The notes beneath the pieces are model-generated. The model saw only the letters and a list, made by a program, of their open reading frames with translations. It was not told the DNA's origin and made no database searches. A program made the translations under genes and the position numbers. From NCBI GenBank assembly GCA_041494805.1, contig JBGQBN010000009.1, positions 1 through 32,000 on the forward strand: DNA of 32,000 bases, read 5' to 3'. Of the stretch, positions 11,442 through 27,961 are shown in pieces (the stretch's first letter is position 1; each line of letters starts with the position of its first letter). Source of the DNA: Terriglobia bacterium. Its GTDB lineage: Bacteria; Acidobacteriota; Terriglobia; Terriglobales; Acidobacteriaceae.

Positions 11442-12974
11442 TCAGAACTTCCGCTCGAAATTCGCAAACGAGCTTTCGAGCTTCCACTGCCCGCGGGCGC
11501 GCTCGTTTGCCTCCAGAAACTTCTCACACCCGGATGAAACCTTGGCCGCGTCGGCACGGTCGCCAGCACACGCCGCCACTGGACGAAATTGCTGCGTCTC
11601 CACCCAAAGGCTGGCGCCAGGCAAGAAACTGTGCTCCAGGCTCTGTCGCGCCATGCGCTTGACCTCGGCATAAGTCAGGCCATAGCTCTCTACGGCTCGC
11701 ACGTACTCATGGGTCATATCGGAACGCGCGACTCCCTCATCGTCCGTCGCCAGCGCCACTGGCACGCCATGAAGCTGGTAAACCGGCAGAGGATGGTCTT
11801 GCCCGCGCACGCCCAGAATCACATCGTTTGAGGTCAGGCAAATCTCCACCAGCACGTTGCGCTGCGCCATCTCCCGCAACAAGCCGAGGGGATCACGCTC
11901 GTCCATTACGGACACGCCATGCCCGATGCGCTCGGCATGCCCTCGCTCAATGGACTCGCGGATATGAAAGCGCAGTCCCTCCGGCGGTACCAATCCCATT
12001 GCCAGTTCGCCCGCATGCAGGCTGATGTGCACTCCCGGATAGACGCCGTGCAGGAAGTCAAGCATCCTCATATGCAGCTCGAAATCATGCATCGGCACGT
12101 ACCAGTCTTCGGGCATGACCAGGTTGAGCCCAACAAACCGCGGATCGGACTTTGCCAGTTCGAAGCCGGCCAGGATCTGTGCAAACACCTGCTCTCGTGG
12201 CAACCCGCGCAGCACCTGGTACAGAAAGCGGACCGTGACGCCGCAGCCGGGATCAGCTTCCGCCGAACCGCACTTGAGCGCGGAACGCATCTTCGCTTCG
12301 TCGTCATCGAGCTGCTTGCCAGTCGCCGCGATCACATCCTTCAAACCGCCCGAGAGAAGCTTGTCGCGCATCCGGCCAAAATCGTCGTCCCAACCTAGCT
12401 TTGCCCCTAGTCGTGCGGACTGCATGCCATCCGCCGTGTGCATGAGTTCAAGGTATTGCACATGATCGGCAGCCGCCCGCGCCGCGGCCTCCGCCATGGA
12501 CTCGCCCATATGGTTCAGCATCGCGGCTAGAAACTTGTCGAAGGTGGCAAAGAAGTGGTCGTGGCCAGATTCCTCCCCGCGGTTCCAGTTGCGCATGGAC
12601 CAGGCGTCGATCATGGAGTTGTAGAGAACCTGATCCTGATACGCGCAAGCCACCCACGGCTTGCTGGTATACCTTTCACAGGAAACATCGCATGGCGGAG
12701 TCAGCAGGAAAGAGGTCGTCCGGTCAACACACAAACCGCTGCCGGCGGCGAAGTCGATGAGGCTCTCCGCATAAATCGCGCCCTCCAGGTGGTTGTGCAG
12801 GTCGCCGCCCTTGGGCATGTCCCGCAAGAATGCCAGCAGAAGCAGAGGCTGCCGCCGAATCGAGTCGAAATAACGGGCCGTGCGCTGCTGTGGATCGGTA
12901 GCGGCTTGCGCTGCGGCAACCGACCCACTTACCGCTACGACAACAACAATAAGCAGACCAGCCGCTCGGCTCAC
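11442..12974 (-). CDS. Secreted adenosine deaminase, ADGF/ADA2-like long form
   Basis: It is about 510 aa. The signal peptide is ..LLIVVVVAVSGSVAAAQA-AT. Metal and catalytic motifs are GGDLHNHLEGA, HISLHAGE, GHG, and LATDDEGVARSD. The GTG at 12974 lies 5 nt after the SD AAGGAGG; the TTG at 12977 is an alternative. Confidence 0.88.
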   Translation of the reverse strand: MSRAAGLLIVVVVAVSGSVAAAQAATDPQQRTARYFDSIRRQPLLLLAFLRDMPKGGDLHNHLEGAIYAESLIDFAAGSGLCVDRTTSFLLTPPCDVSCERYTSKPWVACAYQDQVLYNSMIDAWSMRNWNRGEESGHDHFFATFDKFLAAMLNHMGESMAEAAARAAADHVQYLELMHTADGMQSARLGAKLGWDDDFGRMRDKLLSGGLKDVIAATGKQLDDDEAKMRSALKCGSAEADPGCGVTVRFLYQVLRGLPREQVFAQILAGFELAKSDPRFVGLNLVMPEDWYVPMHDFELHMRMLDFLHGVYPGVHISLHAGELAMGLVPPEGLRFHIRESIERGHAERIGHGVSVMDERDPLGLLREMAQRNVLVEICLTSNDVILGVRGQDHPLPVYQLHGVPVALATDDEGVARSDMTHEYVRAVESYGLTYAEVKRMARQSLEHSFLPGASLWVETQQFRPVAACAGDRADAAKVSSGCEKFLEANERARGQWKLESSFANFERKF

Positions 12975-13058
12975 CAAACCCTCCTTGAATTCCTGAAGAC
13001 CGGCATTTTACCTGTTCGGCAGAAATAAAGTAGCAGAACCCAGCTTGCTGATCGCGAA

Positions 13059-13082
13059 AGATCGACCGCGAGAGATCGACCG
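13059..13082. promoter_or_regulatory. Direct repeat AGATCGACCG-N4-AGATCGACCG upstream of the deaminase operon
   Basis: Identical 10-mers sit at 13059-13068 and 13073-13082, with a third GATCG at 13050-13054. They lie about 85-105 nt upstream of the deaminase start. Function is unknown. Confidence 0.25.
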
Positions 13083-13349
13083 TGGCCAGCGTGGAGAACC
13101 GCCGAGGCCCAGCTCTAGAAAGACCACAAAAGTCCCTCCCCACGCGGTTTTCGCGAGATTTTCACAGTTTGAGGGTGGGAGATTTTTCTAGCGACTGCCG
13201 CAGGGGCGCTAACGGAATCCGCAAAAAACGCCATCCGCTGCCGATCAATCGGCAACCCTTTTCGGCAAATTGCACCACTTTCAGTTCACCTGGCTGTGGA
13301 CCGGCTGCACTTGATTGATTTTACGACGGATAGAGTTCTGTGTTTCGTA

Positions 13350-13383
13350 TTGACTCTAAAAATGGAAGGAGTAAGAAAATAAT
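13350..13383 (+). promoter_or_regulatory. Candidate sigma70-like promoter for the ncRNA candidate
   Basis: TTGACT is at 13350-13355. After 16 nt comes TAAGAA (13372-13377), or after 19 nt GAAAAT (13375-13380). This sits in the only strongly AT-rich patch of the region. Confidence 0.3.
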
Positions 13384-13384
13384 C

Positions 13385-13705
13385 GTTCTTTGACAGCTTC
13401 TGAAGTTTTCCCGGTTGGTGCGGCGTCCGGGGCTCAAGCGAAGTCACCTGCAGACCGCAAGGTCATGCAGGGAAGGCGAGCAAGGGTCTATAGCAAAGCG
13501 CTGGTCGAGGCGAACAAGAAGATATGTTGAAGGCAACATAGGATCCCGAGGCGTTAAGCTGGTTTATCCGGTTGGCGGTAAGCCCGGAGCCCGAGCAACG
13601 ATCGCGCGTTGCGACCCGCAAGGGAAGCGACGAAGGCAGGTCGGCAAGGGTCTAAAGCGAGCTACTGGCCGAGACGAATGAGCTTAACACCACCTCGGGA
13701 TTCTT
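13385..13705 (+). ncRNA. Candidate structured ncRNA with two homologous modules of about 110 nt (family not recognised)
   Basis: Module 1 is about 13410-13520 and module 2 about 13567-13680. They share CCGGTTGG..CCGG(G/A)GC.C.AGC..[GCAA-capped hairpin]..GAAGGC..GCAAGGGTCTA(T/A)AGC..CTGG.CGAG.CGAA. Stems differ by compensatory changes. A 19-bp outer helix (13541-13560 with 13681-13703) encloses module 2. G.U pairs and the GNRA loops fit the + strand only. Boundaries are approximate. Confidence 0.45.
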
Positions 13706-13832
13706 ATTTGTGACGCGCGCAATCCAACCCCGCTGAGCGGCCAGGCCTCAGCGCTCCCCTGCCTCCGAGTAATTCGGGCTCTATCGGGGATGGGATGCGC
13801 GCTTCCCCATCCGCTACGTCTGGGCCTAACCC

Positions 13833-14528
13833 TCACGGTCCTTGCTGCACCCGCAGTTTCTCTCCCGTCACCAGCCGTGCTCGATAGATGGTGTTGGTCG
13901 CGGCTACCTCGGCCACAACGTCAACATTCACTTCGTAAGCGCCCCGCGGCAGGTTCTCTCCGAACGGAATCTCGAGATCAATAGTGTTCTTCTTCAGAGC
14001 AAAGTGCTGATACCCAACCGCCGTAGCTCGTCCCTTCTCGCTCACCGCCAGCACGATCACCGTCAGGTCGAAATCCTGTCCCGTCTGGTTGGAAACTTTG
14101 ACCGCACCCTCCACCCTTTTTCCCGCTACCTTGGGATCTCGGCTCCACGCAACCAGCAGTGGCGCCACCACCTGCAGATCGAGTTCCTGGTTCTGCTGCT
14201 GGGCAGGCTTGCCGCTATCGGTCACCGTCACCACAAAGTGAAACGATCCAGCTTCGCTGGGAATCCCAGCCAGCAAGCCGTCTTCACTCAGTGCGATACC
14301 CCGCGGTAACGAACCTCCAGTGAATTGCCATTTCAAAGGACTGATTCCGCCCTGAGCCTCCAATTGGAAGCGATACTCTTGCCGCAGATACCCCTTGGGC
14401 AAGGACGTCGTCCGCACTGAGAGTGGCCCGCCCATCGCGGCGCCCTGCTGCGCCGGGGAGCTGAGGGAAGCCGCCAGCACGCACCACATAATGGCAAGGG
14501 TTGCGCGGCCGGCCACGTGCTTTGACAT
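13833..14528 (-). CDS. Exported protein with putative cadherin-like Ig domain
   Basis: The signal peptide is MSKHVAGRATLAIMWCVLAASLSSPAQQ. The 'putative Ig domain' pattern is YRFQLEAQGGISPLKWQFTGGSLPRGIALSEDGLLAGIPSEAGSFHFVVTVTD. The ATG at 14528 is preferred over the extension to 14570. Confidence 0.7.
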   Translation of the reverse strand: MSKHVAGRATLAIMWCVLAASLSSPAQQGAAMGGPLSVRTTSLPKGYLRQEYRFQLEAQGGISPLKWQFTGGSLPRGIALSEDGLLAGIPSEAGSFHFVVTVTDSGKPAQQQNQELDLQVVAPLLVAWSRDPKVAGKRVEGAVKVSNQTGQDFDLTVIVLAVSEKGRATAVGYQHFALKKNTIDLEIPFGENLPRGAYEVNVDVVAEVAATNTIYRARLVTGEKLRVQQGP

Positions 14529-14590
14529 GATCCCCATCGCGTGCGCTCTAGAGCCAAAGCTACAGCACAAGGTTGCCTACTCCAAAAACT

Positions 14591-14679: not shown

Positions 14680-15666
14680 TTATCTTCCCAAAAAGTCATC
14701 GACCGCTTTAACGAACATGTCAGGCTGATCCACAAACGTCATGTGCCCCGCCTTGGGGAAGATCACCAGCCTCGATCCCGCAATCTTCTCGTGCATCACC
14801 TGCGACATCGCCGGATCGGACTCGTCGTGATCGCCCACCAGCACAAGGGTTGGCACCTTAATCGTCGCCAACTGGTCCGTGTACTCCACCGATTTCAGGT
14901 TCCCGTCAATGATGAACTCGCCATGGGATCCCCACATTTCCCGGTAGAGGTCCCATGCCGTGTTGCCATTGGCGACGGGGTCATAATTAGGATCGGGACG
15001 ATTTTGGTACAGATACGGAAAATAACCTTCACCCCAGGCCGCAATCATGTATTCGTTCGTGTAACGATGCTGCTCGTATTCCTTGCCGTGGCCATAGAGG
15101 CCTGCTGCTTCCATCTTGCTGATTCGGTCGCGGAGCTCAGCTGGCATCTTCTCTTTCATGTGCACGAAGACTTCATTGATCGCCTTGGTGCTGGAAAACG
15201 TGCTGCCTAGAATCAGGTGTGAAAGATTGCGCTGATACTTGAACGCATACGCCTGTGCCAAGCAGCCTCCGTAGGAATGCCCCAGCAGGCTGATCTTGCC
15301 CAGCCCCAGCGCCTGCCGCACCGCCTCAACGTCTTCCACCATATTCTCGACGGTGTAGCCGGAGGCATCCTCCAGCTTCTGTGAGCGTCCCGAGCCACGC
15401 TCATCAATGAAGATCAATTCATTGTGCCGCGCCAAAGGCAGCAGGTAGGGCAGGAAGTAGTCATGCGACGCCCCCGGCCCACCATGCACAATCATGAGGG
15501 GTTCGCCGCGCCCAAGAATCTTGTAGTAGATCATCACACCATGGGCGTCCACGAATCCCTCTTGCATGGGATAGAGGTTTGGAGAATTTGCGGATGGTCC
15601 CGCGCCCTGGGCCAACGTGATTGCAGACATCAGGAAGAGAAGAAAGAGGGTTAGTGGAGTCTTCAT
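14680..15666 (-). CDS. Exported alpha/beta hydrolase, proline iminopeptidase (prolyl aminopeptidase) family
   Basis: Motifs are HGGPGASHDYF, IFIDERGSGRS and the nucleophile elbow LLGHSYGG, with a C-terminal ..GHMTFVDQP. The signal peptide is MKTPLTLFLLFLMSAITLAQG. The start could be 15666, 15675 or TTG 15702. Confidence 0.85.
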   Translation of the reverse strand: MKTPLTLFLLFLMSAITLAQGAGPSANSPNLYPMQEGFVDAHGVMIYYKILGRGEPLMIVHGGPGASHDYFLPYLLPLARHNELIFIDERGSGRSQKLEDASGYTVENMVEDVEAVRQALGLGKISLLGHSYGGCLAQAYAFKYQRNLSHLILGSTFSSTKAINEVFVHMKEKMPAELRDRISKMEAAGLYGHGKEYEQHRYTNEYMIAAWGEGYFPYLYQNRPDPNYDPVANGNTAWDLYREMWGSHGEFIIDGNLKSVEYTDQLATIKVPTLVLVGDHDESDPAMSQVMHEKIAGSRLVIFPKAGHMTFVDQPDMFVKAVDDFLGR

Positions 15667-15733
15667 GGCCCCCATGCTAACCGCTTTGAAGGACGAAGAC
15701 AAAACTCTGATGAAAAGTGATCCGCGGGCTGCC

Positions 15734-17296
15734 TTAGCCTACCTGCCAAACCGTATCCAGCACTGTCCCGTCCACCCACTTCACCACCGCGACCGGCCGG
15801 TCCCCAAGCTTCGGCCGCGCCGGCTTCCCGCCGCAAATCCGCTCCACTTCGGACTTGATGTCCTGGAGCGGCCGGATGGGCAGCTTCGAACCCTTCACCG
15901 CATCCAGCAAATCCTGACGCCGCGGATTGACCGCAATCCCACGCTCCGTCACCACCACATCAATCAGCTCGCCCGGCCCGGTCAACGTCGTCACTTCATC
16001 CACGATCACCGGAATGCGGTCGCGGAACGACGGCACCGCCAGAATCGTGCATCCCGCCGCCAGACAGTTCTGCCACCCGCCAATCCCGTGCAACAGCCGC
16101 CCATCGGAATGCGTCACCACATTGCCATTGAAGTTCACATCCACTTCAGTCGCGCCCAATACCACCGCATCCACCATCGAAGCGAACGAACCTTTGCCGT
16201 GAAAGTTGTACGAAGTGAACGGAGACGTGGGCACGTGTCGCGGATCGCTGGCAATGGATTTCACGGCGTCGAGATCGAACGTCTGTCCGTCGAGAATGTA
16301 ATCGGTCAATCCTTCCTGCAGCATCTCCACCAGATACCGCGTGGATCCGCCGCGCACGAAACGCGCTTTCACGCCATCTTCTTTCATCATGCGTCGCAAA
16401 TAATCGACGAACGCCAGCGCAATCCCGCCTGCCCCTGCCTGGAAGGAAAATCCGTTGCGCATGATCCCCGCCTCGCGCAGGAACCGCGCCACAAACTCCG
16501 CAATCCGCAATCGATCGGGCGAGCGTGTGATCTGGGTTGTCCCCGAAACAATCTTCGTCGGATCGCCGATCGACTCCACCTCAACCACAAAGTCCACATT
16601 GTTGCCCTGGATTTGCCAGGGAAGACAAGGGAACGGCACCAGGCTGTCGGTGACCACGATTACCTGGTCGGCGTACATGGAATCCGCCAGCGCAAACCCC
16701 AGCGATCCGCAAGCCGACTTGCCATGCGACCCATCGGCGTTGCCGAAAGAGTCGGCTGTCGGCGCAGCGATCACCGCGATGTCAACGTGCACCTCGCCAT
16801 CCTGTATGGCCTGCCAACGCCCTCCGTGCGAGCGCAGCACGCCCATGCCCCGCATCTTGCCCTGGGTGCAGTAGTCGCCCAGCGGCCCATTCATCGAGCC
16901 TTCAATGTGATGAATGACCCCCGACTGCATCAGCTCAATCGCACTTTTCTGCGAGGGAAATGAAGCGCTGGGAAACCACAGCAAATCTTTGACGCCGATT
17001 TTTGCCGCCGCCTCAAGCGCCATCAAAGCAACGCGGTCGCCGTCCCGCAGGTGATGATGATTAGAGATCACCATGCCATCGCGCAGCCCACACCTGCTCA
17101 AGGCAGTTTCGAGATCCGTCACGCGCTTGTCGCCGTTCTCCGGATAATCCTTATTCGAGCGAACCGGCGGCGCAGTCTTGCGCGCCCGCGGCTGGTACTT
17201 GGCCACACCCAGATAAGGAATCTGCGGCTTGCCATTGACCATGGCCGGCACCATCCGCCCCGCCGCATTCTGTGCCACTTCCACTCTCTCGCTCAT
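15734..17296 (-). CDS. citF: Citrate lyase alpha subunit (citrate CoA-transferase)
   Basis: It is 520 aa, with the CitF pattern ISNHHHLRDGD, HHIEGSMNGP, LRSHGGR, DIAVIAAPTADSFGNA, GSLGFA and FSFQAGAGGIALA. The SD GGGAG precedes the ATG at 17296. Confidence 0.92.
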   Translation of the reverse strand: MSERVEVAQNAAGRMVPAMVNGKPQIPYLGVAKYQPRARKTAPPVRSNKDYPENGDKRVTDLETALSRCGLRDGMVISNHHHLRDGDRVALMALEAAAKIGVKDLLWFPSASFPSQKSAIELMQSGVIHHIEGSMNGPLGDYCTQGKMRGMGVLRSHGGRWQAIQDGEVHVDIAVIAAPTADSFGNADGSHGKSACGSLGFALADSMYADQVIVVTDSLVPFPCLPWQIQGNNVDFVVEVESIGDPTKIVSGTTQITRSPDRLRIAEFVARFLREAGIMRNGFSFQAGAGGIALAFVDYLRRMMKEDGVKARFVRGGSTRYLVEMLQEGLTDYILDGQTFDLDAVKSIASDPRHVPTSPFTSYNFHGKGSFASMVDAVVLGATEVDVNFNGNVVTHSDGRLLHGIGGWQNCLAAGCTILAVPSFRDRIPVIVDEVTTLTGPGELIDVVVTERGIAVNPRRQDLLDAVKGSKLPIRPLQDIKSEVERICGGKPARPKLGDRPVAVVKWVDGTVLDTVWQVG

Positions 17297-17323
17297 TCCA
17301 CTCCCTTTGGCTCAAGTTCCATT

Positions 17324-17358
17324 GTCATCCTGAGCGGGCTTCCAGCCCGCGAAGGACC
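17324..17358. repeat. GC hairpin element GTCATCCTGAGCGGGCTTCCAGCCCGCGAAGGACC in the citDE-citF gap
   Basis: GCGGGCT (17334-17340) pairs with AGCCCGC (17344-17350) around the loop TCC. The flanks GTCATCCTGAGC/GAAGGACC resemble a repeat class I recall seeing in soil-bacterial intergenic regions (memory only). A second CTTCCAG-centred hairpin is at 27989-28009. Confidence 0.45.
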
Positions 17359-17406
17359 TATGCACCTGTCTGGCCCACCGAGGCGACGCATCCTTCTTAT
17401 CGGCAG

Positions 17407-18618
17407 CTACGCTTTCCCCATCTGCTTCGCTCGCGCCATCAGCTTCTGCGCCCGTTCCACCACCGGCGCATCAATCATTTTCGACCCGAGGCTCACCACA
17501 CCCAGCCCCTTCTGCTGCGCGTCTTCAAACGCCGCCACAATCTTCATCGCTTTCTCAATCTCGGCTGCTGAAGGCGCAAACCCTTCATGGATAACCGGGA
17601 TCTGCGAAGGATGAACGCATCCCATCCCTTCGAACCCCAGCCCGCGGGAGTTCTCTGCCCAGCGCCGCAAGCCATCCAGATCGCCCACTTCCCCGAACAC
17701 GGAATCAATCGCCTGAATCCCCGCCGCCTTGGCCGCATTCACCAGGCGCGTGCGCGCGTAGAGCGACTCGCGTCCTTCCGCGGTCTTCACCACGCCCATG
17801 TCGGCGGTGTAGTCCTCCAGCCCAATGGTTAGTGCGGCCACATTCGCACTCGCCATAGCGATCGCGGCAGCGTTCTCGATCCCGAATGCAGACTCCAGAA
17901 TCGGCATCAGCCAGATCGGACGAGTGATGCCGTAGCGGACCTTCAGTTCGCCAATCATCCGGTCCACTTCCGCCACCTGCTCAGCCTGCTCCACTTTGGG
18001 GATCAGCACCAGATCCAGCGCTTCCGGAATAATTTCCGCAAGGTCTTCGAGCCCCATAGGAAGCTGATTGATCCTCACCATGCGCTCGCATGCGCCAAAA
18101 TCCACCGCGCGCAGAGTGTTGCGCACCAGAACGCGGGCAGCATCCTTTTCCGCGTGATGAACCGAATCTTCAAGATCGAGAATGATGGCATCCGGCCCAT
18201 GCAGCCCGGCATTGATAAAGTATTTCGGTTCCGTGCCCGGCAGATACAGCCGCGACCTGCGCAAGCGATCCCGCCGCGACGGCTCGCCCAGTGCAATCTT
18301 TTCAGGAGAGGCTTTCCTCCCGACGCCCAGGCCCGCGCGTTTGGCGGCCGTCTCGATCCGCGCAGCAATCACATAGGGAAGCGCGCCTTCATCGTGAATG
18401 GCGACCTGCGCGTGCTTTACGCCAAGCGTCCCGAGCACTTGTCGCGCCTGTGCCATGATCGAGGCGCCGTAGTACGGCGCGACGCGGGACTCCAGAGTAA
18501 TCTCCAGACCCCCGCCCTCCCGCGGCTCGATGGCCACGTGCAAATCCGAGCGCACATCCTTGCCCCAATGACCGGCTTCCGCCGGATGCGCTTTCGTTGT
18601 CTGTTGTGAAGCACTCAT
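17407..18618 (-). CDS. citDE: Fused citrate lyase acyl-carrier (gamma, CitD) and citryl-CoA lyase (beta, CitE) protein
   Basis: The N-terminal ~100 aa look CitD-like: RSDLHVAIEP aligns with E. coli/Klebsiella ESSDVMVRIGP, which carries the prosthetic-group serine, and ..VAIHDEGALPYVIAARIE aligns with ..DDKGALDCVLRARLE. After a basic linker, a full CitE/HpcH-type domain follows (SRLYLPG, DAIILDLEDSV, ILESA.GIENA, GLEDYTADMG, GFEGMGCVHPSQI). Confidence 0.88.
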   Translation of the reverse strand: MSASQQTTKAHPAEAGHWGKDVRSDLHVAIEPREGGGLEITLESRVAPYYGASIMAQARQVLGTLGVKHAQVAIHDEGALPYVIAARIETAAKRAGLGVGRKASPEKIALGEPSRRDRLRRSRLYLPGTEPKYFINAGLHGPDAIILDLEDSVHHAEKDAARVLVRNTLRAVDFGACERMVRINQLPMGLEDLAEIIPEALDLVLIPKVEQAEQVAEVDRMIGELKVRYGITRPIWLMPILESAFGIENAAAIAMASANVAALTIGLEDYTADMGVVKTAEGRESLYARTRLVNAAKAAGIQAIDSVFGEVGDLDGLRRWAENSRGLGFEGMGCVHPSQIPVIHEGFAPSAAEIEKAMKIVAAFEDAQQKGLGVVSLGSKMIDAPVVERAQKLMARAKQMGKA

Positions 18619-18634
18619 AGTGGACCGTGTTGAG

Positions 18635-18681
18635 ACCGTGTGGGGACGGGCGACTCGCCCGTCCGCGGAGTGCAGCTCCGC
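18635..18681. repeat. ACCGTGTGG box plus two GC hairpins in the dehydrogenase-citDE gap
   Basis: ACCGTGTGG is at 18635-18643, with a partial duplicate GACCGTGT at 18623-18630. GGACGGGCGA (18644-18653) pairs with TCGCCCGTCC (18655-18664). GCGGAG (18665-18670) pairs with CTCCGC (18676-18681). There is no U-tract. Confidence 0.5.
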
Positions 18682-18684
18682 AGC

Positions 18685-19872
18685 CTACTTCAACTTCTCC
18701 AAAATCGCATCCCCCATCTGGACCGAGCTCGCCGCCCCCTGACTGAGTGACTTGCTCCCGCCAGAAATCCGCATCATGTCGTAGGTCCGCACCTTGCCCT
18801 CTTTCACCACGTCCGCGATCGCTTTGCGGATGCGGTCGGCTTTGGCCCCCTCTCCCACATGGTCCAGCATCATCGCCGAGGAAAGAATCATCGCGATCGG
18901 ATTCACAATGGGCGGATTCAGTTCCGCATACTTGGGCGCCGACCCATGCGTTGGCTCAAACACCGCAATCTCGTCGCCGATATTTCCCGAAGCCGCGAAG
19001 CCCAGCCCACCCACCAACCCCGCGAATGCGTCCGACAGAATATCGCCGAACAGGTTCGAGGCAATAATCACGTTGTAGTCTTCCGGATTCTTGTTCAGCC
19101 ACATCAGCTGCGCGTCAATGTTCGTCGACCACAGCGCAATGCCCGGATAGTTCTTGGCCACATCCTTGGCGGCGTCTTCCATCAATCCGGAAGTCTCGCG
19201 CAGCACATTGGGCTTTTCGCAGATGGTCACGCCCTTGAAGCCGCGTTTCTTGGCGTACTCAAATGCGGCGGTAGCAATGCGACGCGCTGCTGGCCGCGTA
19301 ATGATGCGCACACTGACCGCCATGTCCGCACTGGGCACGTTCGCGAAAGCCTTGAACCTGGGATGGGAGTTCAGGGTAGCGCGCACATTCTCCGGCGGAT
19401 TTGTCCACTCCACGCCGGTGTACATGCCCTCGGTGTTCTGCCGGAAAACGGTGGTGTCAATCCGCGGCTCGTCAAACCCGCTATCCGCACGTTTACGAAT
19501 ATAGTTCAGCGGATTCCCCGGAAACCCGATGCAAGGCCGCATGCAGACATCCAAATTGAATTTCTGCCGCATGGTCACGATCGGGCTGTAGTACACGTAG
19601 CCCTTGCCGCGCAATTCCGGCTTCAGCTCACCCTGGGCTTCTTTGTTCGGCTTCGACGTGATCGCGCCAAACAGTCCCAGCTGGTGTTTCGCCAGCAGGT
19701 CAAGCGTGCGCTGGGGCAGCGCGTTGCCCTCATTGACCCAGCACTCCCAACCAATGTCCGCAGGAACATACTCCGCATCAAACCCGACTGCCTTCAAAAT
19801 CCGCAATGCCTCCGGCAGGACTTGGTTACCGATCCCGTCGCCCGGCATCGTGACTACGGTGTACTTCGCCAT
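18685..19872 (-). CDS. Isocitrate/isopropylmalate dehydrogenase-family beta-decarboxylating dehydrogenase (substrate unresolved)
   Basis: Motifs are MPGDGIGNQV, YYSPIVTMRQKFNLDVCMRP, VFRQNTEGMYTGVEW, NLFGDILSD and EPTHGSAPK. The protein is 395 aa. The SD GGGGAGAG precedes the ATG at 19872. Confidence 0.88.
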   Translation of the reverse strand: MAKYTVVTMPGDGIGNQVLPEALRILKAVGFDAEYVPADIGWECWVNEGNALPQRTLDLLAKHQLGLFGAITSKPNKEAQGELKPELRGKGYVYYSPIVTMRQKFNLDVCMRPCIGFPGNPLNYIRKRADSGFDEPRIDTTVFRQNTEGMYTGVEWTNPPENVRATLNSHPRFKAFANVPSADMAVSVRIITRPAARRIATAAFEYAKKRGFKGVTICEKPNVLRETSGLMEDAAKDVAKNYPGIALWSTNIDAQLMWLNKNPEDYNVIIASNLFGDILSDAFAGLVGGLGFAASGNIGDEIAVFEPTHGSAPKYAELNPPIVNPIAMILSSAMMLDHVGEGAKADRIRKAIADVVKEGKVRTYDMMRISGGSKSLSQGAASSVQMGDAILEKLK

Positions 19873-19994
19873 TCACTCTCCCCGAAAACCAAAATCTTGA
19901 ACCGCAGAGGACGCCGAGAGCGCGAAGAGAGGATTAACGCGAACCTAGGTAATTCTTCCTCCACGTCCGCAGCGTACTCGGCGGTGTTCATTCT

Positions 19995-21929
19995 TTAAGC
20001 CAGTCCCAACCGCTTCGCCACCAGATTCTCCGCCCCCCCGGCAATCACCAACGACTGCGGCACGCTGCCCAGCGGCGGAAACCCAAACTCCTCCCCACGC
20101 CAGTGAATCACTCCCGCGGTGAAATCCACTTCAATCTCATCCCCCGGAATGATCGTCTTCTCCTTTGATCCTGCAAATTGCTCGCGCAACCGCTTCACCA
20201 GTTCCGGCACTTCCACGCAAAGAAAACCATTGTTATAAGCGTTTCGCAGATAGGTCTGCGAGAAACTCGCCGCAATCACCAGTGGAATCCCCTTGGCCTT
20301 GAGACAAGTGACTGCCTGCTCACGGCTCGACCCAGTGCCAAAATTAAAGCTGCTCACGATCACATCGCCGGCGCGCGTGCGCCCGGCAAACTGCGGATCA
20401 TAATTCTCCATGACCACGTTGGCCATCATCTCGGGAGTCATGTCGTCGCGGTAAGTGTAGTCTTTTCCATAAATGGCATCGGTGTTGACGTTATCCTGCG
20501 GCATGAACACCAGCCGCCCCCGCACCCGCTCCGGAAACCCGGGGAGGATATCAACTTTCTCTGCGGCTGCACCCGTGGCAAACTCGGTGTAGACGCGCGC
20601 CGGCGTACGCTCCCCCAGTTCATGAGGTCCGCGGATGTAGCCCGCCACGGCGGAAGCCGCCACCACTTCCGGACTTGCCAGATAACATTTCGCGTCGCGC
20701 GAGCCCATGCGGCCCTTGAAGTTCCGGTTGGTGGCCGAAATTCCAACCTCACCCGGCTCGAGCAAGCCGATGCCGAGCCCAATACAAGGCCCGCATCCAG
20801 CCGGCAGCGGGTTCGCTCCCGCGTCCAGCAACGTCTGCCAGATGCCGCGCCTCTCGGCTTCTTCCTGGACCCACTTGCTCGCTGCGCCCAGGTAAAACTT
20901 CACGCCCGCCGCGACTTTCTTTCCCTTCATCACCGTCGCGGCAGCTTCCAGATCCTCCACTCGCGAGTTCACGCAGGAAAGCAGATACGCCTTCTGGATA
21001 GGAACCCTCTTCCTCTCCATCTCCGCCAGCGAACTCATCACTTGCACTGTATCGGGGCCCGACACATGAGGCGTGACCTGGCCCAAATCGAGCACAATCC
21101 GCGCCGCATACGTGGCCCCCGCATCCGGGCGGGGTGGATTCTTGGCCCAGTTCTCCATGTCTTTTTCCGAAAACCGCTCGATGCCGGTTGCCTTAAGGCG
21201 CTGATGTACGCCGCGAAGGTACTTGATCGTGACCTCATCCACCGGGAACCAGCCTACCAGCGGCCCCCACTCGGTGCTCATGTTCGAGATCGAAAACCGT
21301 GCGTCCATGGATAGGCTGGCCACGCCCGGGCCGGAGAATTCCACCGCCGCGTTCAACACTTCATCGTGGTTGTAAAGGCCGCACAGCGTGATGATGATGT
21401 CCTTGCCGGTAGCGCCCCCCGGCAACTTGCCTTCCAGCACCACTTCGATCGAGCGCGGAATCTGCCACCAGAATTCTCCCGTAGCCCAAACCGCAGCCGC
21501 GTCGGTGCGCACGATGGGCGTGCCGGTCGCCCCCAACGCGCCATACATATTGGAGTGTGAATCCGAAGCCACCACGAAAGATCCGGGCACGACGTATCCA
21601 CGTTCCACCATGATCTGGTGCCCGATACCCGAGCCTGCGGGGTAAAAATCCACTCCCTGCTGCTTGGCGAAGGCTTCGATGGCCCGGTACTTGGAGAGAT
21701 TCGCATCCTCTTTGTTCTGAATGTCGTGGTCGAGCGCAAACACCAGCTGCTTCGGATCGTAAATCTTCTTCGCCCCAATCGCCTTGAACTTGCTCATCAC
21801 CGCCGAAGTGTTGTCGTGGGTCATGACATGATGAGGGCGGATGGAAACGAAATCCCCAGTCCGCAGTGGCCGCTTCGGCCCTTCCGCCAGGTGGGATTGC
21901 GCAATGTTTTCAACCACGGTTTGAGCCAT
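19995..21929 (-). CDS. Aconitase-family hydro-lyase, fused large+small (LeuC/LeuD-like) domains, homoaconitase-like
   Basis: Motifs are GIGHQIMVE, ASDSHSNMYGALG and TPIVRTDAAAVWATGEFWWQIP. Putative Fe-S ligands are in SCVNSR and GCGPCIG. The swivel-domain motif is NFGTGSSREQA. The ATG at 21929 has CAGGAG 8 nt upstream; the ORF extension to 22112 overlaps the PrpD gene and is rejected. Confidence 0.88.
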   Translation of the reverse strand: MAQTVVENIAQSHLAEGPKRPLRTGDFVSIRPHHVMTHDNTSAVMSKFKAIGAKKIYDPKQLVFALDHDIQNKEDANLSKYRAIEAFAKQQGVDFYPAGSGIGHQIMVERGYVVPGSFVVASDSHSNMYGALGATGTPIVRTDAAAVWATGEFWWQIPRSIEVVLEGKLPGGATGKDIIITLCGLYNHDEVLNAAVEFSGPGVASLSMDARFSISNMSTEWGPLVGWFPVDEVTIKYLRGVHQRLKATGIERFSEKDMENWAKNPPRPDAGATYAARIVLDLGQVTPHVSGPDTVQVMSSLAEMERKRVPIQKAYLLSCVNSRVEDLEAAATVMKGKKVAAGVKFYLGAASKWVQEEAERRGIWQTLLDAGANPLPAGCGPCIGLGIGLLEPGEVGISATNRNFKGRMGSRDAKCYLASPEVVAASAVAGYIRGPHELGERTPARVYTEFATGAAAEKVDILPGFPERVRGRLVFMPQDNVNTDAIYGKDYTYRDDMTPEMMANVVMENYDPQFAGRTRAGDVIVSSFNFGTGSSREQAVTCLKAKGIPLVIAASFSQTYLRNAYNNGFLCVEVPELVKRLREQFAGSKEKTIIPGDEIEVDFTAGVIHWRGEEFGFPPLGSVPQSLVIAGGAENLVAKRLGLA

Positions 21930-21966
21930 ACAAGAAACTCCTGACAGCCGCGAAACCCCATGATCC

Positions 21967-21992
21967 GTAGAGACGTAGCTTGCTACGTCTCC
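21967..21992. repeat. Palindromic intergenic element GTAGAGACGTAGCTTGCTACGTCTCC, copy 2
   Basis: It matches copy 1 (3231-3256) at 25 of 26 positions. It lies between the PrpD-family stop (22013) and the aconitase-like start (21929). Confidence 0.7.
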
Positions 21993-22012
21993 TCCGTGTC
22001 CTCGTTCCGTCC

Positions 22013-23449
22013 TCAGCGCCGTTTTCGCCGCGCTGATCTCTTCGGCCCCCTGACGTCCGCCTTCATCAACCCCATCAGCTTCGAAACCGAACCCGCCTTC
22101 TCCAAGCCCCAAATGGCGTCCTTCAATTTCTTCTGCGCCACCTTCGACAGCACACCTTCCGCCAGCGCCGCGAACTTTTCCTCCACTTCCTGGTCCGTAA
22201 GCGGGTTCCGCGGGTCGCCTTTGGGAAAATCCAACTGCTTGGTAAACGTGCGGCCGTCCGTGGTGGTCAGGTTTACGATCACCCGCTGCAGCGCCGGGAA
22301 AACCTTCTCAATCTCGGGATCGGCGACGACCTCGACCTTCTTCAACTGCGCCCGAATGGTCGGGTCCATGATCTTCTTCATCTCGAACTGCACCGGGGTG
22401 ACTTGCCGGTCGGCCACTGCCGCCGCGATCACGTAAGGCAGCGAGTGGTCGGCGGTCTCTTTCGTCCGCGGATCATACTTGCTCGGATCAGAAAGAATAT
22501 CCGCCGCGCGCGCCAAAGACCGAATCTGCACCTTCTGCACCTGTTCCGGCCTCAGATTGTTCGATTTCACAATGTCGAGCACCGCGGAAATCGGCGTGTG
22601 GGTCAGCGCCTCGGTAGGGAACGCTTTCATGCCGCATTGCGTGATGCGCCACGATTCGCCCAGCCCATCGGTGAGAATGTTTAGTTTCCACTCCGGACCA
22701 AAGCAGTGAGTCAGCCCTTCCTTTCCGTCCACTACGTGTTCCGGGCCCGTGTAACCCTTCTCAGCCATCAACGCCGCCAACACTCCACTCTGCGTCGCCA
22801 TCGGGTCAACCGTGTTCTTCATCATGGTCAACTTGCCGGCGGTGACTGCACCCAAAGTGGCGTGACGGCTGGCAGAGATGCCGACCGCATGTTGAATCTG
22901 CTCCCATCCAAGACGTAACGCCCGTCCCGCAACGAAGGGCGAAACAAATGCGGTCAACGTCGCATGATGCCATCCCCGCTCCCGAATGCCTGGAAACGCG
23001 GCCTCGCAAAAGCGCATTTCAAATTCGTGTCCCAGCACGAGTCCGACGATCAGCTCTTTGCCATTGCTCTTCGCGCGTTCGCAGCAGGCCAGGGCAGCGG
23101 GAAAAATATCGGACGGATGCGACGGATCCTGCTTCCAGTAGATGTCGTTGTAATCCATGCAGCGGATCATCAACGCATTAGCCAGCGAAGCCGAGACCGC
23201 ATCGATCTTCTGACCTGTGCCGATGACGGTCGCGGGCCAGCGCCCAGCGATCTCATCAAGCACTTCGAGCGCGATCTTCACATCATGCTGCTGGTAGCCC
23301 CCCAGGGCGCAGCCGACGGAATCGAGCAGAAAACGTTTCGCATGGTAAGCCGCGTCCTGGGACAGGTGCTGGTACTCCAGACCAGCGGCCCACCGCGCCA
23401 TCCCGGCGGTGATTGTTTCTTTCGTAGCGCTCTCTTTCCCGGCAGACAA
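22013..23449 (-). CDS. MmgE/PrpD-family protein (2-methylcitrate dehydratase-like; specificity unknown)
   Basis: It is 478 aa with PrpD-family N- and C-terminal domain patterns (FLLDSVGCALGG, MIRCMDYNDIY, HPSD, GWHHAT, CGMKAFPTEALTH). The TTG start at 23449 has AGGAGAG upstream and lies 8 nt after the HD-gene stop. Confidence 0.9.
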   Translation of the reverse strand: MSAGKESATKETITAGMARWAAGLEYQHLSQDAAYHAKRFLLDSVGCALGGYQQHDVKIALEVLDEIAGRWPATVIGTGQKIDAVSASLANALMIRCMDYNDIYWKQDPSHPSDIFPAALACCERAKSNGKELIVGLVLGHEFEMRFCEAAFPGIRERGWHHATLTAFVSPFVAGRALRLGWEQIQHAVGISASRHATLGAVTAGKLTMMKNTVDPMATQSGVLAALMAEKGYTGPEHVVDGKEGLTHCFGPEWKLNILTDGLGESWRITQCGMKAFPTEALTHTPISAVLDIVKSNNLRPEQVQKVQIRSLARAADILSDPSKYDPRTKETADHSLPYVIAAAVADRQVTPVQFEMKKIMDPTIRAQLKKVEVVADPEIEKVFPALQRVIVNLTTTDGRTFTKQLDFPKGDPRNPLTDQEVEEKFAALAEGVLSKVAQKKLKDAIWGLEKAGSVSKLMGLMKADVRGPKRSARRKRR

Positions 23450-23457
23450 TATCTCTC

Positions 23458-24042
23458 CTATTTCACCTTAATGTTCTTTGGATTCTTGAACGGCAGGAAC
23501 GCCATGAAGTCGGCATGGTGCACGATATAAGCCTCGGTGGTGCGCTTCACCAGGTCACCCTCGGCGGCGTGCGCAGCAATGATGTGGCAGACTTCATCGG
23601 GTACGCCGCACTCCAGCGCCAGCGCGACTCCGGTAAAGGGATGGCGCAGGGCCTCGCCACGCTCACTTTGGCGGCTCTTGCCGTCCGGGCCGAGTTCGTA
23701 CTCCAGCAACTTGCCCACATCGGCGAGAATGGCGCCCGCGATGACCGTGTCCAGGTCGATGGGCAGCGCGCGTCCCATGAATTCCTGCATGGACTCGGCA
23801 CTCTGGCGCGCAATGTGTACCACGCAGCGCTTGTGTTCCATGAAAGTAATGGGACAGTTGGGCACGAGCAAGGTGAACGGGATGCGGTTCAGGTCGTCAG
23901 GCTTCAGCGGACTGCGCTCCAACGCTTTGATCCATGTGTTAGTGACCTGCTCGCGCAGTCTCTTGTTTTCGATCCACTGAATCTCCGGCCACAGCTTGGC
24001 GACCGCCTCACGCATGCGCTCCGACCTCCATTCCGAAAACAT
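23458..24042 (-). CDS. HD-superfamily-like protein with variant metal motif
   Basis: It is 194 aa. The pattern is F.EHKRCVVHIA ... AILADVGK ... RHPFTG ... IIAAHAAEG ... HHADF, which matches the HD-domain layout, but the canonical HD doublet reads AD. Confidence 0.65.
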   Translation of the reverse strand: MFSEWRSERMREAVAKLWPEIQWIENKRLREQVTNTWIKALERSPLKPDDLNRIPFTLLVPNCPITFMEHKRCVVHIARQSAESMQEFMGRALPIDLDTVIAGAILADVGKLLEYELGPDGKSRQSERGEALRHPFTGVALALECGVPDEVCHIIAAHAAEGDLVKRTTEAYIVHHADFMAFLPFKNPKNIKVK

Positions 24043-24194
24043 CTAGCTTACCGTGTGGGACGAGGGGACGTCGAGGGGGCGCTGCCGTGGCTAAAGCCCG
24101 TGATCGGAGATACCGACGTGACGCGGCGCTCAAAGCGTCGCTCTCCCACGGTGACGTTCGAACCTCTAGTTGGCCGTTCTCCGGGTCTGTTTCC

Positions 24195-27100
24195 CTAGAA
24201 CGACAACTTCAGCGCGAACTGGATCTGCCTTGGATCACGCGCCGCAGTCAGGAAGCCGAATTCCGGCGTCCCGAAGGTGGTCGTATCAATCGAGTTCTGC
24301 GGTCCCGACTTGGCAAACTGCAGGTTGGGGTGATTGAAGAGATTGAAGAACTCTGCCCGGAACTCCAGCTTGGTGCGTTCGGTGATGGGGAAAGTCTTGA
24401 ACACGGAAAAATCCCAAATCTGGTAGCCCGGACCCTCGACGGTGTTGCGGCCCACGTTGCCAAACGAGCCGAAGTTCGGATCGGTGAAAGCGCAAGCGTT
24501 AAACCACGAGCCCTGCGTCCGCGTACGGTCGGCCGCCAGTCCGCCCTGCGAAATGGTGGTCGCGCAGCCCGGATCAGGATTAGCCCCAACCGGCCCAGCC
24601 TTGAACGGATCACTGATGAGGTCGGGACGCGATTGACCGTCGGAGTTGGAGAAACTGTTGTCGTCGAGAATGGTGAACCAGTTTCCTCGCGACATGCTGG
24701 TGATGCCGCCAATCTGCCATCCCCCGGCGATGTAGTTGAGTACGCCAGTCGCATCGCCCAGAAAACGTTTGCCGTGGCCGACGGGAAGTTCATACAGATA
24801 ACTGAGGACCAAACGGTGGCGGACGTCGAAGTCGGCGTTGCCATATTCTCGCCCGGGTTGCTGATAGAAGCGGAAATCACCGCCGTTCTGGGCGCCGAGA
24901 TCGGCGTTGGAAGCGATGTCGAGCGCGTGCGCCCAGGTGTAAGCCGCCAGGAACGTAAGCCCATGGGAGAAGCGCTTCTCGGCGCGCAACTGCAGAGAGT
25001 TGTAGTTCGACCAGCCCGCCGAGCGGAACCATCCGATGAAACCATCCACCGCAGGGAAGGGCCGCCGCGTATCGATTGGCGGAGGATTGGGACTGGGATC
25101 GGGCAGCGCCTGGTTGCCGTTGAGATAAATGTACTGCTTCAGGCCACGAGATCCAGCGTAGGTAACCTCGAACACCGTATTCGAAGGCAGTTCGTACTGG
25201 GTGGAGAGGTGCCACTGCTGCATGTACGGCGTCACCAGGTGAGGGTCAAGAGAAAACAGCAGCGGGGTGTTGGGATCGACCAGGGCGTTGGCTGGGAAGC
25301 CCGTAGCTAGTGTGGAAATTCCGGGCAGGCTGCAATCCTGCACCGCGGGATTCGCGGCCGGCTCACCGCAGGGATTATTAAAGTTTTCAATGGTAAAGAA
25401 CGGCGGGTTAAATCCCATGCTGGGGTTGGAATAGGGACCGGCCTCGCTGCCGCCGTAGAAGAGTCCGTACCCGGCGCGGACTACCAGCTTGTCAGTTGCC
25501 CGATACGCCAGGCCGATGCGTGGCGCGAAATTGTTGGTGTCCGGGGGAATCAGCCCGGGGGTGGCCGTGGCTTGAATCGGAATGATGCTGGCCAGCGTCG
25601 GAGTCAACTGTGCATTCACGCCCTTGGGGACGATCAAGCTGTGCGTGGCAAGGTCGAACGTGGCTTGCTGGTTGGTCCTCTCTTTTATCGTGGTGAAGAG
25701 TTCGTAGCGCAGGCCGAGGTTCAGAGTAAGCTTCGGAGTGATCTTCCAATCATCCTGGGCATAGAACGCATACACCGGGCGGTGATAGTCAATGTTGTGC
25801 AGGTTATTGATGCTGCCGCCATCGCTCAGGCCGATCAGAAATGAAGCGTAGCCCGAGCCGCCCGTGCCTGCAGCGGCCGGGTTGTCGGTGAAGACCGGCC
25901 CGAAGTCCAGAGTGCCACGCGGCGCGGCGGGCTGGAAGATGGTGAATTCTTCGAGCCGAATCTCGCTGCCGAACTTCAACGAGTGATTGCCCCGGACCCA
26001 GGTCAGGTTTTCCAGCAGGCTGTAGCTGTTCTGAATTTCGTGGGAGGGCAGGAACGTCGGACTGCCAATCTGCGAAACGTCGCTGTAGGTCAACTGCGGC
26101 AAGCCGCCATTTCCCGCCACGTCAGGGATGCCGGGAAATCCGCCAGAGAAATTCAACAGCTGCTCGCTGGTCTTATCGGAATTGATCTGCTGGCGTTGTG
26201 AGTTGATCCGGTTATAGCCCAGGCGGAATTCATTGACCAGTTGCGGGCGGAAAAGATGCGTCCAACTGGTGGCAAAGCTACGATAGGAGTTGGCCTCCAC
26301 GCCGCCAAAGAAGCCGCCACCGTCACCGCCGGTGCTGTCGAAGGGGCCGGGAATCACGCTGGGCTGGTTTTCGTAGCTGAAGCGGAAAAATCCGTAGTCC
26401 TTCTCGGAGTATTTTTGGTCGATCCGCACGTCGAAATTATTGCGACTCTCCGTACGAACTGGATTGGAGAGAAAGTTGAAGCCCTGGTTGCCGCTGACAT
26501 TGGCATGGGGATACAGCTGGGTGATCGCCAGAGCGAGCGGATCCATGGCGCCGCCAGGAATGATGTTGATGGGCTGACCGGTCGGACCATACCCAAAGGG
26601 CACGCCACAGAGCGCGCTCAGATAGGCCCCATTGGCCTGCGTCTGCCGGGTATTGAACAGCTCGCCGGCATAAGTGGGCTGCCCGTTGCAGTCGAGCGCG
26701 GGGATCATGGTCACCCCGTCACTAGCCAAAGCCATCTGCGGCTGCGTGTAATCAATCTGGTCAGAGAAATCCCCCGCGCGCTGGGCGTCGGTCGGTACGA
26801 AAGAAGTCAGCGTCTGCGCCTGGCGGACGCGCAGGCCTTCATAATCCACGAAGAAAAACGTATGGTTGCGCACGATCGGACCGCCGAAGGTGAAACCAAA
26901 CTGGTTCTGCTTGTAAGGAGCGATGGCACTGTTGGGATCGTCAAAAAAGTTCTTGGCGTCGAACATTTCGTTGCGCAGAAACTCGTAGGCGCTGCCATGA
27001 AACTGGTTGGTCCCCGACTTGATGGTCGCATTTATGATGGCCCCGTTGCCCCGGCCGAACTCTGCGCTGTAAGCGTTGGTCTGGACCTTGAATTCCTCCA

Positions 27101-27764: not shown

Positions 27765-27961
27765 GACGAGGCTCCTTCGCATGGACTCCCCAATACCACG
27801 GCGGACAGGAGTCGCATGGCATTATGCTTTTCCGGTCGGACGAACCTGATTTGTTGTATAGTTACGAACACTTACTTTTACTTTCGTTCTAGTGCGTTGT
27901 CAAGGGAAGAGTTGGCTCTGTTGACATCCTCAGGAGTGTGATTTTTCGGGTGTCGGTTCGA

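Follow-up and report, generated by a model that had tools for sequence, protein, structure and literature searches.

Which acid is made or broken down by a set of genes in which a PrpD-family protein and an aconitase-family protein stand beside a decarboxylating dehydrogenase and a citrate-lyase-type cleavage system? The question is raised by six co-directional genes in the first 32,000 nt of contig JBGQBN010000009.1 of a Terriglobia bacterium (assembly GCA_041494805.1), a stretch of ∼59% G+C that is referred to here as the window. The genes occupy positions 15734–24015 of the minus strand. An initial annotation of the window had proposed that they serve the interconversion and cleavage of a citrate analogue rather than the standard tricarboxylic acid (TCA) cycle or methylcitrate routes. 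This is supported by the conserved linkage of the genes, by a homoaconitase equivalog profile, and by a substrate loop shared with a fungal homoisocitrate dehydrogenase (HICDH), the function itself being deduced. Among the analogues then suggested, homocitrate now ranks first, with alkyl-citrates and citramalate-type acids placed below it. Our favoured reading, plausible although tentative, is that the six genes may form an operon for a reversible CoA- and ATP-free route between 2-oxoadipate and 2-oxoglutarate plus acetate via homocitrate-type acids.

Gene order and conservation of the operon

Families were assigned to the open reading frames (ORFs) of the window with Pfam and NCBIfam profiles, equivalog cut-offs serving as pass or fail. 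The six ORFs, their short spacing and their families were as the initial annotation had given them. In the direction of transcription, and all on the minus strand, they code for a variant HD-superfamily protein (23458–24015; 185 aa, with an HDIG match), an MmgE/PrpD-family protein (22013–23449; hereafter the PrpD-like protein), an aconitase-family protein of the Lys4 type with large and small domains fused (19995–21929), an NADP-type β-decarboxylating dehydrogenase (18685–19872), a fusion of an acyl carrier protein (ACP; aa 23–95) to a CitE-type lyase (aa 118–401), named here CitD::CitE (17407–18618), and a CitF-type acyl-ACP:carboxylate transferase, the α subunit of the lyase (15734–17296). 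The gaps between them are 8, 83, 122, 66 and 110 nt long. Neither terminator-like sites nor sigma-70 promoters were found in any of these five gaps.

Relatives of the locus were collected in a species-level scan with one genome per GTDB species, which yielded at least 599 matching stretches, 591 of them encoding a relative of the PrpD-like protein. The best 80 of these stretches were compared; all come from Acidobacteriota metagenome-assembled genomes (MAGs) bearing the names Terriglobia, Terriglobales, Acidobacteriaceae, Sulfotelmatobacter or Terracidiphilus, and almost every sufficiently long one shows the order HD, PrpD-like, aconitase, dehydrogenase, CitD::CitE, CitF. A relative with 61% identity served as the seed for a second set, 80 metagenome loci of greater divergence; almost all complete loci among them have the identical six-gene order, with proteins 56–94% identical to those of the window. 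The operon proteins are ∼80–90% identical across many species, and the PrpD-like protein has thousands of relatives at ∼90% identity, the sole named source in the list being a Terriglobales MAG. Over all loci the median intergenic gaps range from 3 to 86 nt; the shortest separates CitD::CitE from CitF (median 3 nt), two genes that often nearly abut and that overlap by 4 nt in locus L168. All six genes are present in this last locus (L168:9407–17418), where the name attached to the PrpD-like protein is that of Gemmatimonas sp. SG8_28. Other close relatives of the PrpD-like protein carry the names Gemmatimonas sp. SG8_17 and Gemmatimonadales MAGs. Judged from these sequences, the six-gene operon is common to two phyla, the Acidobacteriota and the Gemmatimonadota.

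In the combined comparison of 160 loci, every ORF within 10 kb on either side was clustered in both sets. No further conserved neighbour was found, whether transporter, regulator, citC/citG/citX, homocitrate synthase, lysine genes or PrpC/PrpB. The absence of PrpC and PrpB, remarked upon in the initial annotation, holds for the scanned ORFs of the window as well as for the conserved neighbours; nor was a citrate synthase or any of citC, citG and citX present among the large window ORFs scanned. Two checks suggested at that stage came out in favour of the proposal, as the gene order is kept in almost all complete loci of the 160, and no PrpD, Icd or AcnA model was passed when the proteins were set against housekeeping families. 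Chance clustering of housekeeping genes was ruled out, given an order kept in 160 loci and the lack of any passed housekeeping equivalog. Also ruled out as members of the operon were the genes on either side, coding for a TonB-type outer-membrane protein (24195–27782) and an α/β-hydrolase (14680–15702), which are not conserved partners.

Some loci depart from the six-gene plan. L169:9406–14857 and L135:1000–6500 contain only the HD, PrpD-like and aconitase genes, followed by a convergent gene for an SDF-family Na+:dicarboxylate symporter, and no dehydrogenase or lyase genes were found near either. This suggests that the HD, PrpD-like and aconitase genes are a separable module. In locus L009, the HD and PrpD-like genes are set apart from the remaining operon genes. 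The HD gene always lies directly upstream of the PrpD-like gene, including in the loci that lack the dehydrogenase and lyase genes.

A further variation, absent from the window, is the insertion of a co-directional DinB_2-superfamily gene between the PrpD-like and aconitase genes, as in L021:11547–12014 (plus strand; PF12867, 54.7 bits; 155 aa). It was seen in 23 of the 80 Terriglobales species loci (e.g. L017, L019, L021, L024 and L025), and its product has weak similarity to MST and MDMPI_N. Some members of the DinB superfamily are thiol-dependent isomerases or transferases. The inserted protein may be accessory to the isomerisation step or a mere passenger.

The encoded proteins

The aconitase-family ORF extends from 19995 to 22112 and matches Pfam Aconitase and Aconitase_C. 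Its start is likely the ATG at 21929, giving a protein of 644 aa, compared with 647 aa in orthologues. The protein contains the signature that the initial annotation had associated with homoaconitases, and the TIGR00139 homoaconitase equivalog was passed with 758 bits in the window and with 700–733 bits in five divergent orthologues (cut-off 529.9). Aconitase models were failed (348 versus 612 and 182 versus 825 bits), as were those for isopropylmalate isomerase. The Fe-S cysteines and the catalytic motifs are intact (DSH, CVNSR, CGPCIG, NRNF.GR and GSSRE). In the swivel domain, the loop NTD.IY..(Y/F)TYR(D/E) contains an Arg conserved among orthologues. Read in the light of work on archaeal homoaconitases and isopropylmalate isomerases, this Arg would suit a distal carboxylate better than an alkyl group. 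The protein is proposed to be a homoaconitase interconverting cis-homoaconitate and homoisocitrate.

The dehydrogenase belongs to Pfam Iso_dh, and its best NCBIfam models are those of methanogen HICDHs, although these scores stay below the cut-offs (AksF2, 273.9 versus 540 bits; AksF, 260.6 versus 500). The iso_homocit_dh model gave 148 versus 680 bits, and all Icd models were far below cut-off. The two methanogen HICDH models run ahead of those for isocitrate dehydrogenase (IDH) and isopropylmalate dehydrogenase (IPMDH), in the orthologues as in the window. Alignments showed the catalytic Arg, Tyr, Lys and Asp of the family to be kept. When the substrate loop YYSPIVTMRQ was aligned to the S-x-N-V..R motif of IDH, Ser113 was found to be retained and the Asn115 position to be occupied by Ile, as an earlier by-eye alignment had indicated. 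The SPIV segment is common to the window protein and the solved HICDH of S. pombe (PDB 3ty3; GYSSPIVALR), and [YF]SPIV is kept in the matched orthologues, while the position of Arg85 in T. thermophilus HICDH is Val in the window protein. The cofactor motif HGSAPKY was present in 101 of 101 orthologues, whereas the aligned NAD enzymes, the HICDH structures included, have GSAPDI. It corresponds to the Lys344/Tyr345 pair of the NADP 2′-phosphate site in E. coli NADP-IDH. Compared with the E. coli sequence, Y391 and R395 appear to be conserved too (RTYDMMR). From these motifs the enzyme would be of the NADP type, and we propose it to be a homoisocitrate dehydrogenase or, in the opposite direction, a 2-oxoadipate reductive carboxylase.

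For the PrpD-like protein, the family named in the initial annotation stood (MmgE_PrpD_N, PF03972, E = 2e-69; MmgE_PrpD_C, PF19305, E = 1e-45) but the kinship with PrpD itself did not. All PrpD equivalogs were failed (NF042438, 85 versus 950 bits; NF006943, 80.5 versus 575; TIGR02330, 54.5 versus 458). Among solved structures, those closest to it by sequence are B. subtilis IRG1 and IDS epimerase, both at 1e-36; matches to cis-aconitate decarboxylase (IRG1/CAD) and IDS epimerase span 1e-36 to 1e-27, against 1e-12 for PrpD. For human CAD, the active site is reported to comprise D93, T97, H103, H159, K207, K272, L278 and Y318 (Chen et al. 2019). In an alignment based on this list, five of the eight positions are kept in the PrpD-like protein (D, H, H, K, K), the other three being changed (T97 to I, L278 to A, Y318 to D). 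Where identity drops to 51% and 47%, the genes of its relatives stand alone in surroundings that have nothing in common with the operon, which indicates that the linked subfamily is narrow; these relatives gave no guide to its function. The PrpD-like protein is proposed, from its family and its partners, to be a homocitrate dehydratase interconverting homocitrate and cis-homoaconitate.

The lyase is encoded by the last two genes. In the fusion, PF06857 (ACP) scored 70.9 bits and PF03328 (HpcH_HpaI/CitE) 177 bits; the citD model came close to its cut-off (59.6 versus 63.5 bits), the CitE equivalog TIGR01588 was not passed (267.9 versus 443.4 bits), and RipC/Ccl was the second-best CitE-type model (168 bits). 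Across 68 Terriglobales sequences, the Ser of ‘RSD’, which aligns with the prosthetic-group Ser14 of CitD (the residue that bears 2′-(5″-phosphoribosyl)-3′-dephospho-CoA in citrate lyase), was at least 97% conserved, and the DLED, PILES and GLEDYTAD motifs of CitD::CitE were kept. The conservation of this serine makes a functional ACP likely. CitF matched PF04223 with 428 bits and fell short of its equivalog TIGR01584 (473.6 versus 501.45 bits); PDB entries 2hj0 and 1xr4 matched it at 1e-113 and 2e-105, respectively.

The initial annotation had described a variant HD protein that merely preceded the other genes. It is indeed a variant, but it is part of the conserved unit, ∼90% identical across hundreds of clusters. 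It passed the HDIG model of NCBIfam (32.5 versus 27.6 bits), while the Pfam search, which included the HD family, returned no match for it. In 135 of 140 orthologues, A-D (ILADVGK) takes the place of the HD dyad in the H...HD...D metal-binding motif that is the norm in the family. Searching the PDB by sequence gave no match for this protein. Its AF2 structure model (pLDDT 77) has an HD-like fold but, when compared with the PDB by Foldseek, gave weak matches to generic HD phosphohydrolases (YhaM, E = 4e-3 and TM 0.52; YfbR; OxsA). Because its gene remains beside those for the PrpD-like and aconitase-family proteins in loci without the other three, the HD protein probably belongs to the isomerisation module. 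The same arrangement weakens the idea that it substitutes for CitG/CitX or acts as an ACP phosphodiesterase, as it remains with those two genes where the lyase is missing.

The proposed pathway and its alternatives

A linear route of four steps is the simplest that links these enzymes, because a 2-substituted malate is the one kind of intermediate that could connect the lyase with the aconitase-family protein, and the aconitase-family protein and the dehydrogenase have a 3-substituted malate in common. The homocitrate series is suggested by the passed homoaconitase equivalog and by the loop that the dehydrogenase shares with fungal HICDH. The overall sequence would be 2-oxoadipate + CO2 + NADPH ↔ homoisocitrate ↔ cis-homoaconitate ↔ homocitrate ↔ acetate + 2-oxoglutarate. 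The NADP-type dehydrogenase would interconvert 2-oxoadipate and homoisocitrate, and the Lys4-type homoaconitase homoisocitrate and cis-homoaconitate; the PrpD-like protein would act as the dehydratase/hydratase for homocitrate, a tertiary alcohol. In the last step, the acetyl-thioester on the ACP domain would be exchanged for homocitrate by CitF and CitD::CitE, and the homocitryl-ACP then split, so that an ACP-dependent lyase would stand in for homocitrate synthase. The net reaction (2-oxoadipate + CO2 + NADPH ↔ 2-oxoglutarate + acetate + NADP+) should, by analogy with the citrate series, lie near equilibrium.

The presence of a PrpD-family protein in such a route can be rationalised. The homoaconitases of fungi and Thermus interconvert only homoaconitate and homoisocitrate, the homocitrate half being done by aconitase (PMC3556520). 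A PrpD-family partner beside a Lys4-type enzyme therefore has an obvious job, the homocitrate half-reaction. In the methylcitrate cycle, (2S,3S)-methylcitrate requires PrpD since aconitases perform anti-eliminations only (PMC3556520). A stereochemical case of the same kind can be inferred by analogy with PrpC, PrpD and aconitase in that cycle. Lyases of the CitE family have (3S)-citryl, (S)-citramalyl and (S)-malyl thioesters as substrates. A member working on homocitrate would take the (S)-form, whose mirror image, (R)-homocitrate, is the product of homocitrate synthase; the acetate-derived arm of (S)-homocitrate would be out of reach of an aconitase-type enzyme, leaving this half to a PrpD-type enzyme and the other half to the aconitase-family protein.

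With regard to direction, we lean towards cleavage, that is, a catabolic drain of 2-oxoadipate from lysine or aminoadipate breakdown to 2-oxoglutarate and acetate. Citrate-lyase-type enzymes are not known to work physiologically in any direction but cleavage, and this, together with a dehydrogenase of the NADP(H) type where the aligned HICDH structures have the NAD-type GSAPDI, favours cleavage. A use in the opposite direction, with 2-oxoglutarate and free acetate giving 2-oxoadipate or α-aminoadipate for lysine or another compound, is quite improbable. Run backwards, the lyase would do the work of homocitrate synthase, with the flux drawn onward by the decarboxylating dehydrogenase, an outline that matches the synthase, isomerase and dehydrogenase of the upper α-aminoadipate pathway. 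It would agree with the absence of homocitrate synthase from the cluster, with the NADPH that an NADP+-linked oxidation would give, and with the high conservation and the lack of a regulator or transporter, which look biosynthetic or constitutive. However, it is textbook knowledge that the reversed citrate-lyase-type reaction is unfavourable at physiological acetate, no such use being known; downstream lysine genes (LysW/X/Z/Y/J/K or of the fungal type) were not linked to the operon in the 160 loci; and a gene for diaminopimelate (DAP) epimerase lies near one variant locus, DAP-pathway genes having been reported for another acidobacterium.

Several observations weigh against the proposed route. 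The identity of the substrate rests on homology to fungal enzymes. No HICDH equivalog is passed by the dehydrogenase (274 versus 540 bits), whose architecture and cofactor site resemble those of the E. coli-type NADP-IDH. CitF is, by sequence, a nearly canonical citrate-lyase α subunit, so that citrate is possible as the true substrate. Because the PrpD-like protein has more in common with CAD and IDS epimerase than with PrpD, it might have an activity other than that of a dehydratase. The genes that make and acetylate the ACP prosthetic group (citC/citG/citX) were not found at or near the cluster in any of the 160 loci, though they could lie elsewhere in the genome, and no lysine-catabolic gene, transporter or regulator was linked to the operon in these loci. 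An identity of ∼80–90% across species fits a constitutive core function better than niche catabolism, and in some lineages the HD, PrpD-like and aconitase genes stand alone at their locus. Lastly, reductive carboxylation is unusual in mostly aerobic heterotrophs. The full proposal, that soil Terriglobales and other Acidobacteriota, with some Gemmatimonadota, possess a ‘reverse upper α-aminoadipate pathway’ free of CoA and ATP and beginning with an NADPH-dependent carboxylation of 2-oxoadipate, is a rather doubtful one. Such a pathway would include a homocitrate dehydratase of the PrpD type and an (S)-homocitrate lyase dependent on ACP, both of them new, and the highly conserved variant HD protein would be a new component required in isomerisation.

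The same proteins could be arranged around citrate itself, in a branch running from oxaloacetate and acetate through citrate, cis-aconitate and isocitrate to 2-oxoglutarate and CO2. It would comprise a genuine citrate lyase, a ‘split aconitase’ with the PrpD-like protein for the citrate half and the Lys4-like protein for the isocitrate half, and a variant NADP-IDH, possibly used reductively under low oxygen to turn glutamate or 2-oxoglutarate into oxaloacetate and acetate. CitF and CitD lie within 28 and 4 bits of their equivalog cut-offs, the dehydrogenase has the size of a prokaryotic NADP-IDH, resembles it around FR.NTE..Y.G.EW and contains GSAPKY, and E. coli PrpD is known from textbooks to dehydrate citrate weakly. 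We nevertheless regard this branch as unlikely. Asn115, which binds the γ-carboxylate of isocitrate, is Ile in the matched orthologues, within a loop equal to that of the fungal HICDH; the aconitase-family protein scores 758 bits with the homoaconitase model, against 348 (cut-off 612) and 182 (825) with aconitase models; CitE is far under its cut-off (268 versus 443 bits); and, citrate being prochiral, the presence of a PrpD-type enzyme would go unexplained.

Another 2-substituted malate might instead pass through the same four steps, for example (S)-citramalate, with citraconate, 3-methylmalate and 2-oxobutyrate, or a citrate analogue that is longer or bears an alkyl group; the lyase would then resemble ACP-dependent citramalate lyase. 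This is unlikely, even though the latter enzyme is a known sibling of citrate lyase (mentioned in PMC4682846). In its favour, hydrophobic residues (Ile, Val) occupy the positions of IDH 115 and 116, as they do in the IPMDH motif; the dehydrogenase, CitE and the PrpD-like protein pass no equivalog model; and RipC/Ccl comes second among the CitE models with 168 bits. It is opposed by the homoaconitase equivalog, widely exceeded in all tested orthologues, by an SPIV segment that is exactly the fungal HICDH loop, by scores of the IPMDH and LeuC/LeuD models under those of the HICDH and homoaconitase models, and by the conserved Arg of the aconitase specificity loop, which suggests a distal carboxylate. 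It would be very improbable, in turn, for the PrpD-like protein to be a decarboxylase or isomerase of the CAD/IDS-epimerase kind that converts cis-aconitate or cis-homoaconitate into itaconate or 2-methyleneglutarate within a branched operon. Although its closest structures are IRG1/CAD and IDS epimerase (1e-36 to 1e-27, versus 1e-12 for PrpD), five of the eight CAD active-site positions are kept, and three-gene loci without dehydrogenase and lyase occur, the residues kept are general to the PrpD family and T97I, L278A and Y318D set the protein apart. Further, the lyase and the dehydrogenase would be left without a common intermediate, and a Lys4-type enzyme needs a partner for the first half-reaction.

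Surroundings of the operon and its place among known pathways

A promoter-like region was found upstream of the HD gene (24044–24078, minus strand; CCCCTCGACG ... GGTAAGCTA). Of 137 loci, 25 have the first of its two k-mers, CCCCTCGACG, ahead of the HD gene and 16 have the second, GGTAAGCTA; other loci have GATAAT at the second position. The region is a putative promoter of the operon. The HD ORF runs to 24042, but the promoter-like region would put the start of the transcript after the ATG at that position and so favours the ATG at 24015. This ATG, with GGAGG upstream, is the probable start because the orthologues are 185 aa long and the promoter-like motif upstream of it is conserved. A stem-loop was read from the sequence that separates the PrpD-like gene from the aconitase gene (21969–21992, minus strand; GGAGACGTAGCAAGCTACGTCTCT), with a perfect stem of 8–9 bp (GGAGACGTA GCAAGC TACGTCTCT) and no run of T after it. 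An Rfam search of the whole window returned nothing at the gathering level and, within 15500–24400, chance-level matches only; a riboswitch or other known RNA regulator of the operon is, on that result, not supported.

Several long ORFs on the plus strand are antisense to the operon (15617–16963, 18859–19998, 20178–21314 and 24087–25310), reach up to 448 aa, and have similar counterparts in related loci; with their low-complexity translations rich in Arg, His and Pro, they appear to stem from the high G+C content rather than to be genes. A block at 9182–14570 (minus strand) codes for a purine nucleoside phosphorylase, a Na+-nucleoside transporter, an adenosine-deaminase-family protein bearing a signal peptide, and a secreted He_PIG Ig-domain protein, a neighbourhood that is conserved. 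In several relatives (L001, L002 and L016 were compared) this block lies divergently upstream of the HD gene, while in the window it is downstream of CitF on the same strand. This difference in position indicates that the six-gene operon is inverted as a block relative to the nucleoside-gene flank. Two very large outer-membrane proteins are encoded at 24195–27782 (minus strand; 1195 aa) and 5777–9124 (plus strand; 1115 aa); the latter matches CarboxypepD_reg and OMP_b-brl_4 in Pfam, and the former was judged alike by eye. A relative of the 1195-aa protein adjoins the operon in a few other loci, an inconsistent link. Farther away, a class-V aminotransferase gene (1945–3209, minus strand) is broken into two ORFs that overlap but differ in reading frame (N-terminal part, 2469–3209; C-terminal part, 1945–2547), while its syntenic counterpart in L002 is a single ORF of 426 aa; the break is a frameshift, and thus the mark of either a pseudogene or a sequencing error.

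The operon shares features with four known systems. As in citrate lyase CitDEF (EC 4.1.3.6) and citramalate lyase, a CitF-type transferase and a CitE-type lyase accompany an ACP in which the serine aligned with the prosthetic-group site is conserved, and the mechanism, an exchange on acetyl-ACP followed by C–C cleavage, is presumed to be shared. In the operon, however, ACP and CitE are fused, all three parts are under their equivalog cut-offs, citC/citG/citX are not linked in the 160 loci, and the lyase stands beside a homoaconitase, a dehydrogenase and a PrpD-like protein rather than a citrate carrier and oxaloacetate decarboxylase. With the 2-methylcitrate cycle (PrpC, PrpD, AcnB/AcnA and PrpB) it has in common the pairing of a PrpD-family with an aconitase-family enzyme for a substituted citrate that aconitase alone does not serve; yet its member of the former family is no PrpD orthologue, PrpC and PrpB are absent from the scanned window ORFs and the neighbours, and the route has a decarboxylating dehydrogenase at one end and at the other a lyase that depends on ACP. 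The upper α-aminoadipate pathway of fungi and Thermus also has a Lys4-type fused homoaconitase, the loop of the fungal HICDH (Lys12), and a second enzyme for the homocitrate half. There, fungi have aconitase where the operon has a PrpD-family protein, and the aligned HICDH structures have GSAPDI in place of the NADP-type GSAPKY; the operon lacks homocitrate synthase and the downstream lysine genes, and its lyase implies cleavage, not synthesis. The branch of IRG1/CAD and IDS epimerase, finally, provides the closest solved structures to the PrpD-like protein by sequence, with D, H, H, K and K kept, but differs at three of the eight active-site positions, and the genomic context is unlike that of itaconate synthesis. 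The operon resembles a hybrid of citrate lyase, the methylcitrate isomerisation pair and the upper α-aminoadipate pathway, but is a member of none of them. The initial annotation knew of no pathway with this gene set, and in full-text searches, whose coverage did not extend to all journals, neither the gene set nor a homocitrate lyase, nor a homocitrate dehydratase of the PrpD type, was found described.

An operon kept intact, with ∼80–90% identity, over hundreds of species is likely to matter to its hosts, which are dominant soil bacteria, even though its genes currently bear generic labels such as ‘2-methylcitrate dehydratase’ and ‘HDIG domain’. If the proposed route is correct, homocitrate would be a third substrate class for ACP-dependent lyases, a homocitrate dehydratase would join the PrpD family for a half-reaction that is done by aconitase in fungi, and a new route would connect C6 and C5 2-oxoacids. 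The reverse pathway, if true, would bring with it three enzyme activities not known before, and carbon derived from lysine would have a new fate. Fungal Lys4 and the substrate loop of Lys12 have close bacterial relatives here (18685–21929, minus strand, and orthologues), which may be relevant to how the lysine pathway of fungi arose.

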